From contig JAWDMD010000014.1 of NCBI GenBank assembly GCA_046536775.1, forward strand, positions 1 through 12,051: a stretch of 12,051 nucleotides of DNA. Reading direction: 5' to 3'. Below, in pieces: positions 518 through 12,051 of the stretch. Under the pieces are notes generated by a model. It searched no databases. It saw nothing but the letters and a program-made list of their open reading frames with translations, and was not told where the DNA came from. The translations under genes were made by a program, and so were the position numbers. The stretch is from Candidatus Nanopusillus sp. GTDB lineage: Archaea; Nanobdellota; Nanobdellia; Nanobdellales; Nanobdellaceae. How positions within the stretch are numbered: position 1 is the first letter of the stretch; every line of letters starts with the position of its first letter.

Positions 518-1273
518 ATGGTAAAAAGATTTGATGGTAGAGAATATAATGAACTAAGGAAAATAAATATAAAGTTAAATGTAGTGGATAATGCAAGAGG
601 ATCTGCAATATTTTCTTTTGGTGATACTGTTGCATTGGCTGCTGTATATGGACCAAAACCTTCAAAAATGTCCATAGATTATGATAAAGCATTCTTAAGG
701 GTTAGATACAATATGCTGACATTTTCTACACCTGAAAGAAAGAAACCTACACCGGGTAGAAGAGAGATTGAGCTATCTGAAGTAATTAAGAGAGCATTAG
801 AACCAGCATTATTATTAGAAGAAATTCCTGGGAGTATTATAGATATATATATTGAAATATTAAACGCAGATGCTGGAACAAGGACCGCAAGCATAAATGC
901 CGCATCTTTGGCATTATCTTTATCAGGTATTCCAATGAAAGATTTAGTAGTAGCTCTAGCAGTTGGAAAAATTGGAGAAAAAATCGTTGCAGATTTAAAT
1001 AAGGAAGAAGAAGATTACGATTCTGAAAAATTAAAGAAAGATCATGAGAAATCAAAATATATACAATATTATGGAGAAGGAAGAGCTACAGATATACCGG
1101 TTGCAATAATTCCTTCTGAGAAGAGATTTACTTTAATACAGTTGGATGGAGAAATTTCAAATAAAGAACTAAATGATGCATTAAATTTAGCATTAGAAAA
1201 AGCTTTAGAAATAAAAGATCTAATGAAGAATAGTATATTGGGACATTTATCTTCAGATAATTTTATTTATTAG
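518..1273 (+). CDS. rrp41: Exosome catalytic subunit Rrp41 (RNase PH fold)
   Basis: Rrp41 hallmarks: R-DGR-x-NELR near the N-terminus, GSA-F-GDT-A-AAVYGP, RY-M-FS-ERK-P-RRE-E-S, ADAGTRTASINAASLAL, and TDIPVA before LIQLDGE. Contains an extra ~20 aa block relative to the Rrp41 sequences I remember. Confidence 0.9.
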   Translation: MVKRFDGREYNELRKINIKLNVVDNARGSAIFSFGDTVALAAVYGPKPSKMSIDYDKAFLRVRYNMLTFSTPERKKPTPGRREIELSEVIKRALEPALLLEEIPGSIIDIYIEILNADAGTRTASINAASLALSLSGIPMKDLVVALAVGKIGEKIVADLNKEEEDYDSEKLKKDHEKSKYIQYYGEGRATDIPVAIIPSEKRFTLIQLDGEISNKELNDALNLALEKALEIKDLMKNSILGHLSSDNFIY

Positions 1274-1319
1274 TATTTTTATAACAAATTTTATAAAGTA
1301 CAAAATATTCTTAAATCAT

Positions 1320-2645
1320 ATGGGGAAAAATTATAAATATCTTATAATATTAATTTCTATTTTAAACTTTACCAACATTTATTCACAATCAAATAATTAT
1401 GTTTATACATGGTATAATGAATCTATAGGTACATTATATATAGATAAACAATTATTAGAATCAACCGCTAGTATGCTTTCTCAATATTTTAGTGCGCTTT
1501 CTCAATACTTAGGTCCTTTAGCACCAATTATTTTAAAAAATTTACCATATATAATAGAAAATTTACCAATTATAGCTTCATTTCTTGCTCTATTTTTTAT
1601 ATTTTATAGATTCCTAAATATTATTAATGAAAAATTGAATATTATCGATGAACATCCAAAAACAATCATTGGTATATTCTCACTGGGAATATCTCTAGTT
1701 GCTGCATACTTATTTTGGCCTTTTGTTATACCTATATTAGGTACCGCATTTATAATAAAAATATTTAGAATTGGTAAATCTAAATTGGAAAGTTTTAAAG
1801 AAAGCTTAGGTAAGATTAATCCTGGATTAATAAATTTCTTCTCAAAAGCAACAACAAATATTAGAGATTTTGATAAAGATACTGGTAAAGTTCTAAAAGA
1901 CATAAATAAAATAGATAAAATAATAAATCATCCTCGCATAAGAGAATTATTAAATTCTATAGAAAAAGATATAGAAACTTTAAATAATATAATATCCCAC
2001 CTATTAAAAGAAACTGAAAATGAGAAATTAACTCCATATAAATTAATAGCTTATTCATCAAAATTTGATCTAACATATAAGAATGCTATAAATAAAATCG
2101 AACAGTTAAATAGAACAATAAATACTATGCTTAATCCTTACTTATTGAGAAGAGTTGGAAATACAATATTTAGAACAAATAAATTTACACCAAAGTATTT
2201 AAGAGAACTAATAAATATATCAAAAGACTTGGATGGGAGATTAAAAAATACATACAATGAGGGTTATAAAATATTTGAAGGTTTAAAGGGATTCTTAATT
2301 TCTGCAGAAGCTACTAGTAGGGAATATAAAATTAAAATAAATAATAATTTAAACAGAATTCTTAATAATAGGAATTTTTTACCTCTATTTAATAACAATA
2401 AATCTATGACAAGAAAACTACAAGAAATAGAGAACACCGTCGTTGCTATTGATAAAAATCAAAATATACCTCCATTGAAAAAAGTGGAAATATTATCCGA
2501 AATACTTAACTTTACAAAAAAATTATCTAAATATTTACGTAAATTTAAGGGAAATCCAAAAAAATTATCAAACTTTATCAACAAAAATTTTAAGAAAATA
2601 ATTAACTCAACTGGAAGTGATTTAAAAACCTCTAAAAAACGTTAA
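1320..2645 (+). CDS. Hypothetical membrane-anchored protein: N-terminal signal/anchor, short ectodomain, about 3 TM helices, then a ~290-aa Lys/Asn-rich helical domain
   Basis: Long ORF in an AT-rich genome where random ORFs are short. Hydrophobic N-terminus YLIILISILNFTNIYSQ. TM segments LPIIASFLALFFIFYRFL and TIIGIFSLGISLVAAYLFWPFVIPILGTAFII. TATA-like ttttataaa sits about 25-30 nt before the ATG. No family recognised. Confidence 0.75.
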   Translation: MGKNYKYLIILISILNFTNIYSQSNNYVYTWYNESIGTLYIDKQLLESTASMLSQYFSALSQYLGPLAPIILKNLPYIIENLPIIASFLALFFIFYRFLNIINEKLNIIDEHPKTIIGIFSLGISLVAAYLFWPFVIPILGTAFIIKIFRIGKSKLESFKESLGKINPGLINFFSKATTNIRDFDKDTGKVLKDINKIDKIINHPRIRELLNSIEKDIETLNNIISHLLKETENEKLTPYKLIAYSSKFDLTYKNAINKIEQLNRTINTMLNPYLLRRVGNTIFRTNKFTPKYLRELINISKDLDGRLKNTYNEGYKIFEGLKGFLISAEATSREYKIKINNNLNRILNNRNFLPLFNNNKSMTRKLQEIENTVVAIDKNQNIPPLKKVEILSEILNFTKKLSKYLRKFKGNPKKLSNFINKNFKKIINSTGSDLKTSKKR

Positions 2646-2816
2646 TTAGAGCTAATTTGCGAGATTATTATATTCTTATTGAACTATTTACAAGAGTACA
2701 ATGTCCATAGCATCTAGTTATAGAGCTTTAAAATTAAAATAAAATGATAAAATTGTATTTAAGAAACTCAAATCTTTAGAAGGATCTATTAATAAAAGAT
2801 GCTTTTACTATCTTAC

Positions 2817-2948
2817 AGGTGATCTAAAAGATCTAACTAAACTTTACAAAAAACATCTTAATTTTTCATTTCCTAAATATTAAAGAAGATCTCTTCCTCT
2901 GAAATTCTCCAGCATAATTTACCAATCTTTCCAAACCTATAGAAATAC
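2817..2948 (-). pseudogene. Decayed partial copy of the Lhr-type helicase gene (antisense to the + strand) with an apparent ~396-nt internal deletion
   Basis: 2900-2939 is identical to 5104-5143 (40/40). The minus-strand reading gives IGLERLVNYAGEFQR, matching helicase residues ~169-183, with synonymous caa>cag and aga>agg at the edge. It then jumps to a tct tct tta (SSL) match with helicase T316-L319 (+ strand taaagaagat at 2881-2890 = 4692-4701). Further collinear short anchors: ttcc, catct (2854 vs 4661), aggtga (2817 vs 4638). Stops are present in frame. Only the 40-mer and its immediate flanks are secure. Confidence 0.5.
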
Positions 2949-3065
2949 GAAATTTCAAATAAAGAATTAAATGATGCATTAAATTTAGCATTAGAAAAAT
3001 CTTTAGAAATCAAAGAAATAATGAAGAATACAATCTTGAATACATATAAAGCCAGTACATTATAA
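2949..3065 (+). pseudogene. Orphan copy of the 3' end of rrp41 (38 codons plus stop, no 5' part)
   Basis: Hand alignment to 1151-1273 gives 82/90 nt identical over the first 30 codons, with only 1 difference in the first 51 nt. In frame it reads EISNKELNDALNLALEKSLEIKEIMKNTILNTYKASTL*, against EISNKELNDALNLALEKALEIKDLMKNSILGHLSSDNFIY* in rrp41. Homology starts abruptly at 2949. Confidence 0.85.
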
Positions 3066-3171
3066 CCTTTTATTTATTTAATATTTTTTATTTAATTTTT
3101 CTATATCTATTCCCTTTTTGTTATAATTATAAGAAAATAATTTATAAATTTTAACAAATTTATATAACAAA

Positions 3172-4491
3172 ATGGAAGGTACAAAAAATATTAATAAGAA
3201 GTTACTAATAACTATATTTACTTTTTTATTTCTAATAAGGTTTATATTTTCAGTATATCCCCAAGCAACATCTCCACAGAATAATGCAGCAAGTAGCTTA
3301 GAATCGAATTCTATTATTCAATGGATTATTAACTCTTCAGTTAGTGGTTATTCAACTGCAGGTCAATATTTAGCTAATTTTTTATCTATTAATGGAGTAC
3401 CATCCGATGTTTGGCCTATTATAGTATTTTTAATGACTACTTTATTCTTTATTGGAATATATACATTTATTTTTGAAATATTTGTACGAAGAATTGGATC
3501 AAACGAAGAAACAACGACAATGAAAAAAGCAAAAATATTATTTATATTTGCTCTAAGCTTATTTTCTGCAATATCAATAGGTTATGCTATACCATTTTTA
3601 TTTAGTCTTTATGGATTTGTTTTATTAATTGTTTTATTAATAGTTTTATTTTTCTTTGGAAGAGCTATTGTTTCTTATGGAAAAATTTTTCATCATTCAG
3701 TTGATCTTTTTGCAGCTCAGGTAAAAAAAAGTTTAATAGAGGCAGAAAAAGCAGCAAAAGATCTTCCTAAAGAAGAAGCAAATCTAATAACAGAAGGAAT
3801 AAAAAAGATTGAGGATCCTTATAATGCTGCAGAAAATGCATTGAAAGATGCAGAGAACAAATTTGAAAATGCTTTAAATATTATAATAAATGAACATGAA
3901 GAATTTATTAATAGTTTAATAAATGATTATAATAAATTTTTAAATAGTGGTATTGCAGCTTCATGGTCACCTAATGATCGAGATCTTGTAACTAAGCTTA
4001 TTGGAGAATCAAAAAATAAAATATATACAAATGAAGAAGAAGTAAGAAAAATATTAAACAATCCAGATAAACGAAATATACAAAATATACAACAAATCAA
4101 ATCAATAAGACAACTTCGTGATGATATATCAAACTACATCCAGGGACTTGGATTAAACGATGTACAAAAACAAGAATTACAAAATATATTACAGAAAGAC
4201 TATCAGGATACTATTAAAAAATATGAATATAAAATATCATCAGAAATAAATGAGTCAATAAATAAATACAGAGAAGCAGAAAATGCATTAGGGACACTCC
4301 AAGTATATGAAAAATTACTTGATAAACCTGTCTTAAAAATTAGGAGATCTTTAGGTGTTTATGGTGATGAAAAAGTAGAATTAGCAATGTTATCTAAATT
4401 AGAAGAATCAAAAAAAGGAATAGAGATATTAAAAAATTTAGTTAATGAAAGAATACAATCTATTGAAAAATTTCGAGCAACTATTTCTTAA
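3172..4491 (+). CDS. Hypothetical membrane-anchored protein, same architecture as 1320-2645; the helical domain includes a HEPN-like segment
   Basis: Signal/anchor LLITIFTFLFLIRFIFSVYPQ. TM segments WPIIVFLMTTLFFIGIYTFIFEIFV and ILFIFALSLFSAISIGYAIPFLFSLYGFVLLIVLLIVLFFFG. A ~275-aa helical region follows. Shares QYL, PII and LFFI (residues 91-94 in both) with the 441-aa protein. Residues 219-278 are collinear with the HEPN-like region of the 576-aa protein. TATA-like atttataaa sits ~25 nt before the ATG. Confidence 0.75.
   Translation: MEGTKNINKKLLITIFTFLFLIRFIFSVYPQATSPQNNAASSLESNSIIQWIINSSVSGYSTAGQYLANFLSINGVPSDVWPIIVFLMTTLFFIGIYTFIFEIFVRRIGSNEETTTMKKAKILFIFALSLFSAISIGYAIPFLFSLYGFVLLIVLLIVLFFFGRAIVSYGKIFHHSVDLFAAQVKKSLIEAEKAAKDLPKEEANLITEGIKKIEDPYNAAENALKDAENKFENALNIIINEHEEFINSLINDYNKFLNSGIAASWSPNDRDLVTKLIGESKNKIYTNEEEVRKILNNPDKRNIQNIQQIKSIRQLRDDISNYIQGLGLNDVQKQELQNILQKDYQDTIKKYEYKISSEINESINKYREAENALGTLQVYEKLLDKPVLKIRRSLGVYGDEKVELAMLSKLEESKKGIEILKNLVNERIQSIEKFRATIS
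3825..3851 (+). repeat. 27-nt exact repeat (copy 1) tgctgcagaaaatgcattgaaagatgc, encoding AAENALKDA
   Basis: Identical to the reverse complement of 8240-8266. Both copies are in frame in their genes. Confidence 0.95.
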
Positions 4492-4496
4492 GTAAT

Positions 4497-5648
4497 TTAT
4501 TTTTCCAATACAAACTTTTTAATTGCCAAACTTTCTGCATAATCATCTATATCCGTTGTAATTATATATCCAATAGATACTTCATGCAATTTATGACCTG
4601 CCCTTCCAATCCTTTGTATTAACCTTGTAACCTGTCTAGGTGAATTATATTGAATAACAGCATCTACATATCCAATATCTATTCCAAGTTCTAAAGAAGA
4701 TGTCGCAATAATTGCCTTAATTTTCCCTTCCTTAAATAATCTTTCATTTCTTTCCCTTACTTCCCTTGATAAAGAACTATGATGTATTTCAATTTTATAT
4801 TCAGGTAACCAAACCTTAAATCTCGAAGATAATAATTCCGCCATTTCTCTTGTATTTACAAATATTATTACAGATTTATGCTTATCTAATATTTCTTTTA
4901 TTTTTCTTAAGCTCCATGCTATTTTTGGATTCCAATTATATTTCTTTGCTAATTCTAAATCTTCTTCACTGATTTCTGGATAATATACTTCTATATGATA
5001 TTTTTTCTCTGAATACCAATATGCAATTTTATGATCCCTATATCCAAAAACAAATTTTGCAGCTTCATCCAGATCCCCTATTGTTGCAGATAATGCAATT
5101 CTTTGAAATTCTCCAGCATAATTTACCAATCTTTCCAAACCTAAAGATAATTGTATTCCTCTTTTTTCATTTAATAATTCATGTAATTCATCTACAATAA
5201 CATATTTTACTGTTTTTAGTTGTTCTCTTAATCTTTTTCCTAAAAATAATATTTGAAAAGTTTCTGGTGTTGTTATTAAAAATTCTACAGGTTTTTTAGA
5301 TAATCTTGCTCTTTCTTTTTCTTCTGTATCTCCATGTCTAACTGCAACAGATATACCTAAATTATCACACCACCATTTTATTCTATCTAATACATCTCTA
5401 TTCAATGCTCTTAATGGTGATATATAAATTCCTAATAATTGATTTTCAATCCCTTTTTCCTTTAATTCCAATATTTTTGAAAATACAGGTAATATTGCAG
5501 CTTCTGTTTTTCCAGATCCTGTAGGAGCAACAATTAAAGTATTATTTCCATTTAATATTTCAGGAATTGCTATCTTTTGAATTGGATAAAAATCTCCAAA
5601 TCTTTCAAAGAATAATTCCTCTACTTTTTTATTAAGATTATATGTCAT
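4497..5648 (-). CDS. lhr: Lhr-type (large helicase-related, SF2 DEAD/DEAH) helicase, RecA1+RecA2 core only
   Basis: Motifs: Q-motif FYPIQ; I APTGSGKT; Ia YISPLRALNRD; TTPE; II DELH; III SAT; V ATSSLELGIDIG; VI QRIGRAGH. YISPLRAL plus DELH plus ATSSLELGID is the Lhr-like flavour. The ORF ends ~35 aa after motif VI, so it is far shorter than the ~850-900 aa Lhr proteins. Its stop is 5 nt from the stop of the convergent 3172-4491 gene. Confidence 0.88.
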   Translation of the reverse strand: MTYNLNKKVEELFFERFGDFYPIQKIAIPEILNGNNTLIVAPTGSGKTEAAILPVFSKILELKEKGIENQLLGIYISPLRALNRDVLDRIKWWCDNLGISVAVRHGDTEEKERARLSKKPVEFLITTPETFQILFLGKRLREQLKTVKYVIVDELHELLNEKRGIQLSLGLERLVNYAGEFQRIALSATIGDLDEAAKFVFGYRDHKIAYWYSEKKYHIEVYYPEISEEDLELAKKYNWNPKIAWSLRKIKEILDKHKSVIIFVNTREMAELLSSRFKVWLPEYKIEIHHSSLSREVRERNERLFKEGKIKAIIATSSLELGIDIGYVDAVIQYNSPRQVTRLIQRIGRAGHKLHEVSIGYIITTDIDDYAESLAIKKFVLEK

Positions 5649-5818
5649 AGATGATTTATATATTTGAATATATTCTTTATTAAACTTACATTTATATTCT
5701 CCAAGAAATTTTTATAAGGTATTCAAAGGATTTAGGGGAAAATTAAAAAATCCTTTTAAAAAGGTATAAAACTTAAATAAGAAATGATAGAAAGAAAATT
5801 TTCAATGACCTTACTAAA

Positions 5819-6358
5819 TTGCAAAATATTTTAAGGCAACAGAAGTTTATAGGATCATATTGTAATTATAATAAATATAGAACAATTTTAGGTAATAATT
5901 TAATATCTGAAATTTGTAAAGTTTCTAGCATTATAGATACAATGTCTGAATCAGTTTATAGAGAACGCGTTAGAATAGCAAGAGACATCGGAATATTAGA
6001 TAAAGAATTGCATAAGTATGTTAAAATATATGAGGAGGCATCATTACAAAATAGAAAAGATATTATAAAAGAATTAGAAGAACAAAAGTCAATAGTAGTA
6101 GAGGAATTAAATTCGGAAGTACAAGAAGAAAGACTTCTTAAAAATATTATTAGTTTACATAATGAAAAAGAAAAATTAGTAAATAATTTAATAACAATAA
6201 TTAGAAATAACGCTGTGAAGAAAGATTTTAATGAATTAAATAAATTAATCAAAAATGAAAAAAAGATAATAAATGAATTAAATAAATATATGAAGGAAAA
6301 TGAAAAGACTCTCAAAAATGAAGAAGGATCAATAAATAAGACAGAGCATATTATATAA
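5819..6358 (+). CDS. Hypothetical coiled-coil protein (Glu/Lys/Asn-rich)
   Basis: The open frame has no recognisable motifs. The track start at 5819 is TTG. The first ATG is at 5942 (MSESVYRERV...), which may be the true start. Confidence 0.5.
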   Translation: MQNILRQQKFIGSYCNYNKYRTILGNNLISEICKVSSIIDTMSESVYRERVRIARDIGILDKELHKYVKIYEEASLQNRKDIIKELEEQKSIVVEELNSEVQEERLLKNIISLHNEKEKLVNNLITIIRNNAVKKDFNELNKLIKNEKKIINELNKYMKENEKTLKNEEGSINKTEHII

Positions 6359-6369
6359 TATTAAAATTT

Positions 6370-7041
6370 TTAGTTTTTAATTTCTTTTTCTTCAATTAAA
6401 ATTCCATCTAATGTATATACTTCATATTTTTCTATTCTCTTTGTAATCGGACCATGAAATTCTCCAACATCCCATGATCCCGCCAAATCGGAAAATGCTG
6501 GTAAGATTATAATTACTTTATTATCTTTATATCCAAATATAAAAACTTTTTCATATATACTTTCTCCAATACTTGTAGAAATGCTTTTTGCAAAATGATG
6601 ATGTCCAACAACATAATATTTCCCCTTTAATTTTGTATTTAAATGTCCATGAGTAAATACAACATTTTTTATTTTAAGTGCTTTTAAAATTTTAACATTA
6701 TTTATCCCAGAAACCAATTCCTCAATGTCCCCATCATGATTTCCCTTTATTATATATATTTTCTTGAAGTATTGAGAACTTTCATTTATAAAATATGGAA
6801 TATCTGACATTTCTTGTAAACTTGTTTCAGGTATATTATGTTTTAAATCTCCATCAATGATTAAGTACTTTATTTTATATTTTTCATAAATTTTCCTTAT
6901 TTTATTTATATAATAATTTACTTGAGAAGGAATATTTATTCCCTTCCTATATAATTCCCTTTCGATTCCTATATGCAGATCAGAAATAACTAAAATTTTA
7001 TTAAAAAATATTAAACCCTCAGTTCCAGTAAATTTAAGCAT
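6370..7041 (-). CDS. Calcineurin-like metallophosphoesterase, MPE/PdeM-like (SbcD/Mre11-related small phosphoesterase)
   Basis: Complete metallophosphoesterase motif set: ISDLHIG, IDGDLKHN, IKGNHD, FTHGH, VVGHHH. The DLHIG-x-ERELYRKGINIP stretch after motif I resembles the DLHLGK...G..vP pattern of the ligase-associated PdeM/MPE family as I recall it. The start overlaps the L35Ae stop by 8 nt (ATGCTTAA). Confidence 0.85.
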   Translation of the reverse strand: MLKFTGTEGLIFFNKILVISDLHIGIERELYRKGINIPSQVNYYINKIRKIYEKYKIKYLIIDGDLKHNIPETSLQEMSDIPYFINESSQYFKKIYIIKGNHDGDIEELVSGINNVKILKALKIKNVVFTHGHLNTKLKGKYYVVGHHHFAKSISTSIGESIYEKVFIFGYKDNKVIIILPAFSDLAGSWDVGEFHGPITKRIEKYEVYTLDGILIEEKEIKN

Positions 7042-10994: not shown

Positions 10995-12051
10995 ATTCCC
11001 GTTGATCCTGCGGGGGGCCATCACTATCTCCCTCCGACTAACCCATGGGAGGCTAGGGATACCGGGCATGGTATCCCGTCGTACGGCTGAGTAACACGTC
11101 GATAACTCTGCCTCGGGAGGAGAATATCCTCGGGAAACTGAGGATAATTCTCCATAGGAAATGGGGTGTGAAATTCCCCCATTTCCGAAAAGGACTGGGA
11201 TAATCCCTCTCAGTTCCGCCCGAGAGGAGGTCGGCGGCCTATCAGGTAGTTGGCGGGGTAATGGCCCGCCAAGCCTAAGACGGGTAGGGGCCGTGAGAGC
11301 GGAAGCCCCCAGATCGGCACTGAGACAAGGGCCGAGGTCCTACGGGATGCACCAGGGGCGAAACCTCCGCAATGGGTGAAAGCCTGACGGGGGGAGGGAG
11401 AGTGCCTGGAGTTTTCTCCAGGCTTTTGAGGAGTGTAAAAAGCTCCCAGAATAAGCAGTGGGCCAGAGGGGTGGCAGTCGCCACGGGAATACCCCCGCTG
11501 CAAGCGATGGCCTCGATTACTGGGCCTAAAGGGGCCGTAGCCGGACTAGTGTGACTCCTGTGAAATCCACGGTAATAATTCCGTGGGCGTGCAGGGGTTA
11601 CTACTAGTCTAGAGGACGGAAGAAGCCAAGGGTATTCCCGGGGGAGTAGCGAAATGCAGCAATCCCGAGAAGACCACCCGAGGCGAAAGCGCTTGGCTAT
11701 TCCGATCCTGACGGTGATGGCCGAAAGCTGGGGGATCAAAAGGGATTAGAGACCCCTGTAGTCCCAGCTATCAACGCTGTGAGCTACCTGCTGGGTGGAC
11801 TTAGAGTCCACTTAGTGGGATAGGGAAGCCGTTAAGCTCACCGCCTGGGGAGTACGGCCGCAAGGCTGAAACTTAAAGGAATAGGCGGGGGGGCACACAA
11901 GGGGTGGGGTGTGCGGTTTAATGGGACCTAACACCGGAAACCTTACCGGGAGCGACAGCAGGATGATGGTCAGGCTGAAGACCTTACCGGACACGCTGAG
12001 AGGAGGTGCATGGCTGCCGTCAGCTCGTGCCGTGAGGTATCCTGTTAAGTC
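10995..12051 (+). rRNA. 16S (SSU) ribosomal RNA, archaeal, 5' ~1057 nt; 3' end beyond the window
   Basis: Starts with attcccgttgatcctgcgg. Contains ctacggg...gcaatggg, the 530-loop region, gggcctaaag, ggattagagacccctgtagtcc, aaacttaaaggaataggcggggg, and gtgcatggctgccgtcagctcgtgccgtgagg in the expected order and spacing. All track ORFs here are artefacts. Confidence 0.97.

Follow-up and report, generated by a model that had tools for sequence, protein, structure and literature searches.

The window "W" of this analysis, the whole stretch of 12,051 nucleotides (nt) of contig JAWDMD010000014.1 from Candidatus Nanopusillus (Nanoarchaeota), contains a joint of two gene fragments, one copied from the interior of a helicase gene and the other from the 3′ end of rrp41. 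At the left end of the window are located the exosome genes rrp4 (positions 3 to 515) and rrp41 (518 to 1273, plus strand), the latter being the functional gene for the RNase PH subunit of the exosome (Pfam RNase_PH and RNase_PH_C, NCBIfam TIGR02065). Both are followed on the plus strand by gene A (1320 to 2645), which encodes 441 amino acids (aa), and gene B (3172 to 4491, 439 aa), the resident cassette gene of the W haplotype; neither product was assigned to a Pfam or NCBIfam family. Convergent to gene B is the gene for the N-terminal half of an Lhr-type DEXH helicase (4497 to 5648, minus strand, 383 aa; Pfam DEAD and Helicase_C, NCBIfam PRK13767). The fragments are positioned in the 526-nt spacer between genes A and B. 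Read along the plus strand, this spacer starts with "x" (2646 to 2896), about 250 nt of non-coding DNA. It continues with "h′" (2897 to 2943), a copy of helicase codons 168 to 183 that is non-coding at this site, a filler of 5 nt, AATAC (2944 to 2948), which resembles neither parent, and "F" (2949 to 3065), a gene fragment extending from rrp41 codon 212 to a stop codon and ending with EIKEIMKNTILNTYKASTL. In the remaining part (3066 to 3171), a TTTATAAA box is located about 30 nt upstream of the gene B start.

The window was compared with related loci, labeled L001, L053, and so forth. Twelve Nanopusillaceae loci came from a genome scan with Rrp41, 31 further loci from a metagenome scan with gene A, and 7 more from exact-protein look-ups; such look-ups for Rrp41 and the helicase of W matched no record.

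A repeat search and a blastn comparison of positions 2600 to 3200 with the rest of the window both recovered the two matches. Positions 2949 to 3038 aligned with 1151 to 1240 of rrp41, which are codons 212 to 241, with 82 of 90 nt identical and a gapped extension to 3088 and 1280, respectively (E = 2.9e-32). The second match was that of h′ with positions 5101 to 5147 in the helicase gene (45 of 47 nt, exact over 2900 to 2939, E = 4.6e-17). No further significant match of 2600 to 3200 existed in the rest of the window. Both fragments kept the orientation of their parents, with the helicase piece preceding the rrp41 piece in head-to-tail order. F begins at codon 212 and is in frame throughout to its own TAA at 3063 to 3065, and this frame is shut upstream by an in-frame TAG at 2940 to 2942. 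The 8 nt changes in the rrp41 copy correspond to A>S, D>E, L>I, S>T, and three synonymous changes, and at the edge of the helicase copy Q/Q and R/R synonymous changes are present. An earlier note on this DNA had described the exact 40-nt copy of the helicase interior, the in-frame rrp41 end with its own stop, and these same substitutions, and had judged the matches to be beyond chance; all of this agrees with the window self-comparison.

A codon-by-codon comparison indicated that the similarity of h′ to the helicase gene drops sharply at either side of codons 168 to 183. A consensus of 30 copies of h′ was almost identical to the helicase genes over about 50 nt only. The filler was kept as AA(A/C)(T/C)A(C/T) in all loci, with a length of 5 to 6 nt. 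The sequence from 3066 to 3171 is conserved in the aligned gene-A-bearing relatives with gene B and is collinear with loci that do not contain gene A, which are described below, and the TTTATAAA box in this native spacer between rrp41 and gene B is, judged from its position, likely to be the promoter of gene B. In an annotation, 2949 to 3065 should be marked as a gene fragment rather than as a small open reading frame (ORF).

Empty and occupied sites at the 3′ end of rrp41

Two types of Rrp41 tails occurred in the loci. The "type 1" tail, ...(G/K)HLSS(D/N/SG)NFIY followed by the stop codon, was present in W, where the last 10 or so codons of rrp41 (1241 to 1273) end with ...GHLSSDNFIY, in L001 to L004, in L007, and in all other gene-A-bearing loci. 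It was seen only alongside gene A or, in L007, alongside a remnant of gene A. The general tail, ...(N/E/H)(K/T/E)(Y/F)(K/S)..., was found in L005, L006, L008 to L011, and 26 further Nanoarchaeota clusters. F is of the general type, from which it followed that in some genomes the sequence of F should be the functional end of rrp41. Such loci were indeed found. In L053, L054, and L055, the gene order is rrp4-rrp41-gene B-helicase without gene A, x, and h′, and rrp41 ends with ...EIKE(I/V)MK(E/K)TILNTYKASTL and a stop codon, followed by the same spacer as in W (Rrp41 of L055 comprises 249 aa). The tail encoded by F, ...NTYKASTL, is identical to that of these three intact rrp41 genes.

Positions 2949 to 3171 of W agreed with the gene end plus spacer of L053 in 210 of 223 positions (94.2%), compared to 73% with the gene end plus spacer of W itself. 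This bears out the suggestion of the earlier note that the DNA at the joint came from a diverged but functional allele, since F and the functional 3′ end of rrp41 in L053 share 94% identity. When W was aligned with L055, positions 1 to 1227 and 2949 to 3937 of W both aligned and 77 nt of overlap were aligned twice. The same pattern, with an overlap of 76 to 77 nt, resulted when the occupied locus L032 was aligned with the empty locus L055. Both of these originate from the whole-genome shotgun project WYEB01 and their gene B alleles are about 90% identical, and the occurrence of the two loci in one assembly project suggests coexisting strains that were binned together. In the empty-site loci, the duplicated segment of rrp41 occurs once and aligns to both copies in W. 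The interval inserted in W is consequently 1228/1241 to 2948, with about 77 to 90 nt of rrp41 then present twice.

The collinear empty-site loci and the double alignment of 77 nt indicate that 1241 to 2948 on the plus strand, absent in the otherwise collinear L053, L054, and L055, was inserted into the 3′ end of rrp41. This "A-module" contains in this order a new rrp41 tail with its stop codon, the promoter region of gene A, gene A, x, h′, and the 5-nt filler, and the left copy of the duplicated segment (1151 to 1240, plus strand) directly precedes it. The joint is very probably the right-hand boundary of an old, single insertion into the 3′ end of rrp41, with F as the displaced native end of the gene. 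By the distribution of the tails, the one now on rrp41 of W is the newcomer brought by the insertion and F is the original gene end. The gene A family was confined to one clade, as its 77 database clusters were all from Nanopusillus or Nanobsidianus and all at least 48% identical, and this fits the gene-A-bearing state being the derived one. The earlier note had expected single-unit and double-unit configurations among relatives, and both are indeed represented, by L053 to L055 and by the gene-A-bearing loci. Of the two units it had delimited, 1151 to 2939 is essentially the extra DNA, so that this part of the reading stood, but its homology with 2949 to 5143 did not, because the two are similar in their short end pieces only.

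Origin, age, and decay of the joint

The following course of events is proposed. The ancestral order would have been rrp4, rrp41 with the end ...NTYKASTL, a cassette gene, and the helicase gene, an order persisting in some strains. About 1.7 kb would have been joined in after codon 241 or so of rrp41, consisting of the 10-codon tail with its stop, gene A with its promoter, and 250 nt, and in this event about 90 nt of rrp41 (codons 212 to 241) would have been duplicated. At the right junction, the 5-nt filler would have remained together with about 50 nt derived from the helicase gene, which lies 2 kb downstream. The native rrp41 end at 2949 to 3065 would thereby have been severed from its gene, to persist as an untranslated fragment ahead of gene B. 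The event would have been illegitimate and was probably replication based, by template switching, the helicase piece being a templated filler. Later, the module, flanked by direct repeats of about 90 nt and by the conserved rrp41 and helicase genes, may have moved between haplotypes by ordinary homologous recombination, and the same process may likewise have exchanged the downstream cassettes, designated B, C, or D.

Short templated filler insertions at illegitimate junctions are known from microhomology-mediated break-induced replication and template switching. The joint resembles them in that about 50 nt from a site 2 kb away are found between non-homologous junctions, accompanied by a few bases without a template and by a locally duplicated segment. 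It differs from the precedents in that such a mechanism is not yet established for Nanoarchaeota, the microhomology is weak, and one of the joined partners, gene A plus x, could not be traced to a source. A templated filler would account for two illegitimate junctions, x/h′ and h′/F, only about 50 nt apart, with nothing else copied from the helicase gene. The possibility that x (2646 to 2896) is a decayed 3′ half of the helicase gene was considered and rejected: the codon comparison, searches of all loci with blastn and tblastx, and an nhmmer profile built from 18 x-h′ sequences all yielded a match to the helicase over about 50 nt only. None of the 250 nt preceding h′ derive from the helicase gene, so only about 50 nt of lhr were copied. 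Homologues of x were confined to the corresponding position of other loci with gene A. From this anatomy of the joint, a replication-based templated filler at an illegitimate join is tentatively preferred over a circularized rrp41-to-lhr fragment, with a probability that nevertheless stays somewhat below even.

The circularized fragment would be the starting point of a Campbell-type integration. A segment of another haplotype with the order rrp41-A-...-helicase, reaching from rrp41 codon 212 to about helicase codon 168, would have been circularized and integrated by one crossover in the 90 nt or so of rrp41 homology, followed by a deletion of about 600 nt of redundant 3′ helicase DNA from between gene A and h′. 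The topology of the locus fits exactly, with direct rrp41 repeats flanking the insert and the joint at the position of circle closure, and as in any such integration the insert is bracketed by two copies of the homologous region that point in the same direction. The end points lie in both conserved flanking genes, as expected of such a fragment, and the repeat copies look like hybrids in some genomes. Unlike a canonical case, the circular intermediate is hypothetical, and the helicase piece and the 5-nt filler would need an added illegitimate joining. Only about 50 nt of helicase DNA are present and the adjoining 250 nt are unrelated to the helicase in all of approximately 30 loci, which means that an additional deletion would have to have occurred before all lineages diverged. 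Moreover, no donor haplotype with gene A as its sole cassette was found. A Campbell-type origin is for these reasons rather unlikely, albeit a serious competitor of the templated filler.

With respect to its architecture, the A-module can also be compared with islands and integrative elements that duplicate 3′ gene ends in the manner of attL/attR sites, which are known for tRNA, tmRNA, and protein-gene targets and include the archaeal SSV-type and pNOB8-type elements. Like these, the A-module resides in the 3′ end of a conserved gene, supplies a replacement end, and leaves the native end at the far side; direct repeats flank it (1151 to 1240 and 2949 to 3038), and occupied and empty alleles coexist. 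In contrast to these, no integrase or recombinase is located in or near the A-module, the cargo is a single gene, the total size is 1.8 kb, and the repeats comprise about 90 nt at about 91% identity instead of an exact core. The right end additionally carries a fragment of a neighboring gene, and no viral or extrachromosomal copy was found (IMG/VR). Searches with Pfam and NCBIfam detected no integrase, transposase, or recombinase in gene A, gene B, orf179, or the genes of the C and D cassettes. The A-module could be a minimal, recombinase-free mobile cassette that leaves as a 1.8-kb circle via the repeats of about 90 nt and re-enters a naive rrp41 by a single crossover, but this must be regarded as an improbable speculation. 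The scar itself belongs to a familiar class, in which the 3′ end of a gene is displaced and the junction carries filler DNA, and it is a genuine and well-preserved example.

A tandem duplication in place, comprising the rrp41 3′ end, the cassette gene, and the 3′ part of the helicase gene, with the copies diverging into genes A and B, would likewise generate a fragment of the downstream gene followed by one of the upstream gene, both in native orientation, and genes A and B are alike in length and architecture, with marginal cross-matches (E = 3e-4 to 8e-4). Unlike at a joint of this kind, neither "unit" of W is a copy of the other. The comparison of A with B by BLASTP gave E = 0.5, and hhalign reached a probability of 55% over 8 columns. 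Gene A is less similar to gene B than is the single gene of the distant loci L009 and L010 (E = 1e-17), and this is the wrong order for a duplication within the clade. The 3′ remnant of the helicase gene is missing from the first unit, and the two rrp41 ends had different types of tails from the beginning, with the ancestral type on the downstream copy. Finally, the scar diverged from its parents by only 5 to 10%, yet A and B are unalignable. Such a duplication is therefore very improbable. As a separate candidate, paralogy of genes A and B was not demonstrated, since BLASTP, all-versus-all BLASTP, and hhalign gave marginal similarity or similarity in the transmembrane regions. The earlier note had left the choice between tandem duplication and integration; an additive integration remains of this alternative, but the duplication fails with the E value of 0.5 and with x not being helicase DNA. 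Its interpretation is thus partly supported: the additive integration involving a diverged functional allele is right, whereas the duplication option, the homology of the units, and a recent date are wrong.

The fragments may have been retained because they have a function, either as an antisense RNA against the helicase mRNA or as homology anchors for the exchange of cassettes. In a plus-strand transcript, h′ would be antisense to the helicase mRNA, with the copy in W exact over 40 nt, and the joint is homologous to both conserved flanks of the variable slot. The condition of the fragments in the relatives speaks against this. The segment x was deleted in L001, h′ was lost in L043 and L044 and half lost in L001, several loci carried indels of 1 nt in h′, and F contained frameshifts or stop codons in L001, L003, L004, L020, L025, and L031. 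Between lineages, x and F diverged by 11 to 23%, and the divergence of x, h′, and F was close to the synonymous rate of the flanking genes. No conserved RNA structure was found in x-h′, with RNAalifold yielding −1.5 kcal/mol on 12 sequences without covariation and with no match in Rfam, and no ORF in x was conserved across the gene-A-bearing loci. In addition, the helicase would be truncated if its gene recombined with h′. Retention for a function is accordingly hardly probable, and the divergence levels, the frameshifts and stops in F, the loss of h′, and the lack of a conserved RNA structure characterize the scar as dispensable, roughly neutral DNA. It is without detectable function, and the effects left are the rewritten C terminus of Rrp41 and an extra gene for a membrane protein. 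The earlier note had taken the substitutions for divergence under purifying selection in a functional allele. The tidy appearance of F in W is best accounted for by its recent origin from a functional rrp41 end, and selection on the fragment itself does not agree with the frameshifts and stops in relatives.

In all 32 gene-A-bearing loci that reached far enough, W included, the series x, h′, filler, and F followed gene A, whatever was located further downstream. The assemblies containing the joint include the closed Nanopusillus acidilobi genome CP010514, single-cell genomes, and JGI/ENA metagenome contigs, and in the closed genome of this cultured organism x and half of h′ were deleted. The joint is common to the Nanopusillus and Nanobsidianus lineages. 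One metagenome contig was about 100% identical to W over 881 to 3700, joint included. The nucleotide identity of the helicase gene was 94 to 97% in relatives, and the proportion of synonymous differences (pS) between W and the relatives with the joint was 0.20 to 0.30 in rrp4, rrp41, and the helicase gene. By this distribution, the joint is old and not strain-specific, and it appears to be of single origin; a recent event does not agree with the occurrence in both lineages and with these pS values of the flanks. An assembly chimera or mis-join, conceivable since W stems from a metagenome-assembled genome and repeats can provoke mis-assembly, can practically be dismissed, because the identical joint exists in 32 independent assemblies including the closed genome and in the contig of about 100% identity; the assembly artefact that the earlier note had named as its own refutation was thus excluded by comparison of assemblies.

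The comparison of the loci establishes the insertion with its boundaries, the duplication of the rrp41 segment, the displacement of the native end, how old and widespread the joint is, and that it decays nearly neutrally and is dispensable. Several points nevertheless weigh against the insertion as proposed here. Precise excision via the direct repeats would mimic non-insertion in any single pair of strains, so the polarity depends on the outgroups. The trees of the left and right flanks are not fully congruent, with L005 shifting its position, and recombination blurs a single gain on one stem. None of the 36 gene-A-bearing loci contained gene A without another cassette, no relative of gene A was found in the IMG/VR viral contigs and no extrachromosomal copy was found, with assemblies being unable to display circular forms, and gene A and x lack a traced source. 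The microhomologies at the junctions do not exceed 2 to 3 nt and are not compelling, and template switching is inferred from the anatomy of the joint. Finally, the exactness of h′ over 40 nt in W depends on one T>C change that equals the state of its own helicase gene. Gene conversion between h′ and the helicase gene in W, in which case the scar would not be wholly passive, is possible but unproven, because the polymorphic site in h′ did not track the state of the resident helicase gene across 30 loci.

The variable slot between rrp41 and the helicase gene

Gene A was located directly downstream of rrp41 in all 36 recovered loci containing it. Its product possesses an N-terminal signal or anchor, hydrophobic segments around residues 75 to 152, and an all-helical C-terminal domain. 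The AlphaFold2 model had a mean predicted local distance difference test score of 68.5, with residues 160 to 430 predicted confidently as helical; comparison of the model with the PDB by Foldseek gave only generic long-helix matches with E > 0.1 and no fold match. The gene B product is built similarly: its N-terminal leader is hydrophobic, two to three hydrophobic segments are present, and the long C-terminal part is helical. Gene B is extremely variable, was represented by 91 database clusters, and is related to the single gene of L009 and L010, as mentioned above. Orthologous proteins were 48 to 80% identical for gene A and 42 to 71% for gene B, compared to 90 to 97% for the slot-flanking proteins across the loci. 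The ratio of nonsynonymous to synonymous substitution rates (dN/dS) against orthologues was 0.71 to 0.92 for gene A, 1.10 to 1.57 for gene B, and 0.05 to 0.20 for the flanking genes, but the alignments are very divergent and mixing of alleles inflates these estimates. The cassette ORFs are nevertheless genes, because they are intact in dozens of AT-rich genomes.

The interval between rrp41 and the helicase gene was occupied in different ways. A B-like gene only was found in L009, L010, and L053 to L055, a C-type gene only in L005, three genes in L008, and a D-type cassette, consisting of two minus-strand genes plus a C-like gene, in L006. Genes A and B were combined in W, L001 to L004, and many others, A and C in L019, L022, and L037, A and D in L042 to L044, L049, and L051, and A, D, and B in L050. 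The locus L007 contained a truncated gene A fused to D-like DNA. This fusion (8806 to 8883 of L007), in which gene A is cut to approximately its first 26 codons and continues with DNA similar to the L006 cassette, is another illegitimate joint. Two joints of a helicase fragment with an rrp41 fragment were observed in L050, at 4461 to 4586 and 6172 to 6401. The second is decayed. It separates the minus-strand genes of the D type from a plus-strand gene that has a promoter region of the B type in front of it, and a further additive event in this locus is thereby implied.

The sequences of F and the spacer varied together with the cassette downstream. In the A-plus-C loci F corresponded to the real rrp41 end of L005, in the A-plus-D loci to that of L006, and in the A-plus-B loci to those of L053 to L055. 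This co-variation indicates that the module and the downstream cassettes were recombined between haplotypes via rrp41, F, and the helicase gene. Between the nearly identical loci W and L018, which are about 100% identical save for the C-terminal 265 codons or so of gene B (40 to 78% nucleotide identity, within 3700 to 4490), the break points were at the boundary of the transmembrane and helical domains of gene B and at the helicase stop codon. The functional rrp41 of L019 (3′ end at 5130 to 5264) carries an "EIM" variant that is otherwise found in B-type fragments and in genes of loci with B only, whereas the fragment in the same locus reads "DLM". This is evidence of an exchange between the repeat copies or between haplotypes. 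The variant sites of the rrp41 repeat were shuffled among copies and haplotypes, and 90 nt are too short to map a crossover.

The interval is a fixed slot with alternative, highly divergent gene sets and as such a flexible island. Envelope-related flexible genomic islands of the replacement or additive kind are diversified by homologous recombination in their conserved flanks (Lopez-Perez et al. 2014, PMC4033161), and the cell-wall island of Haloquadratum walsbyi (PMC4535781) is a case for comparison. As in these islands, the rrp41-lhr slot is fixed between core genes, contains very divergent genes for envelope proteins that are non-homologous or barely homologous, and has break points of the swaps in or at the flanks. 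Unlike these, it is a miniature of one to four genes in the genome of an ectosymbiont of about 0.6 Mb, and the cassettes encode single membrane-anchored helical proteins instead of being gene clusters for glycosylation.

"Hypothetical external" proteins with a high density of non-synonymous single-nucleotide polymorphisms (SNPs) were described for Yellowstone Nanoarchaeota (Jarett et al. 2018, PMC6142677). The proteins of the slot come from the same clade (L004 is labeled as the single-cell isolate SCGC AB-777_F03) and fit this gene class, with an N-terminal hydrophobic helix, no annotation, and fast protein evolution. In contrast to the present analysis of a locus, the passages searched in that paper give SNP densities at the level of categories, and no mention of the locus, the insertion, the scar, or the swapping was found in them. 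No description of the locus or the scar was found in the literature searched.

Surroundings of the locus and biological meaning

The exosome operon of W (3 to 1273) consists of rrp4 and rrp41 with no rrp42 thereafter, and the variable cassettes fill the place that rrp42 has in many archaea. The helicase gene (4497 to 5648) covers positions 18 to 408 of the 877 positions of the PRK13767 profile, which are the two RecA-like domains; the C-terminal half is either missing or encoded at another site. The genes listed beyond it in W encode orf179, a metallophosphoesterase, L35Ae, a 576-aa protein with a nucleotidyltransferase domain, a HIT protein, and a membrane protein. A second variable slot is located at 5649 to 6369 between the helicase and metallophosphoesterase genes and contains orf179 (5819 to 6358) in W. 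This gene was missing in L001 to L004, with a spacer of about 165 nt, and just 36 to 39% identical in L005, L006, and L039; in L055, the slot contained an unannotated gene for 217 aa. The right end of the window (10995 to 12051) contains the 5′ 1,035 positions, or two-thirds, of an archaeal 16S rRNA gene, which is cut by the end of the contig. The G+C content was about 24% across W and about 57% in the 16S rRNA part. A long minus-strand ORF at 11275 to 11739 within the 16S rRNA gene is spurious. The tRNA search detected no tRNA gene.

The scar is a dated and directional marker for gene acquisition by illegitimate recombination, indicating that an obligate ectosymbiont with a genome of about 0.6 Mb still acquires genes in this manner. 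The event also exchanged naturally the C-terminal tail of Rrp41, an essential subunit of the exosome. Strains recombine homologously often enough to shuffle the cassettes, with break points resolved to 60 nt between near-identical strains. The membrane-anchored proteins of the locus evolve at or above the neutral rate (dN/dS of 0.7 to 1.6, compared to 0.05 to 0.2 in the neighbors, with the reservation given above). They are concrete candidates for a role in attachment to the host or in host range, in both Nanopusillus and Nanobsidianus. The interest is consequently in the marked locus more than in the scar: a miniature flexible island with fast-evolving membrane proteins and frequent recombination between strains in an archaeal ectosymbiont from hot springs with a reduced genome. 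If the A-module were indeed a mobile cassette, this would mean that a gene for host interaction spreads through the Nanopusillaceae while the essential rrp41 is always repaired with the module's own tail. Jointly with the swappable and positively selected cassettes B, C, and D, this would make the rrp41-lhr slot the main locus for host recognition or host range of these ectosymbionts.

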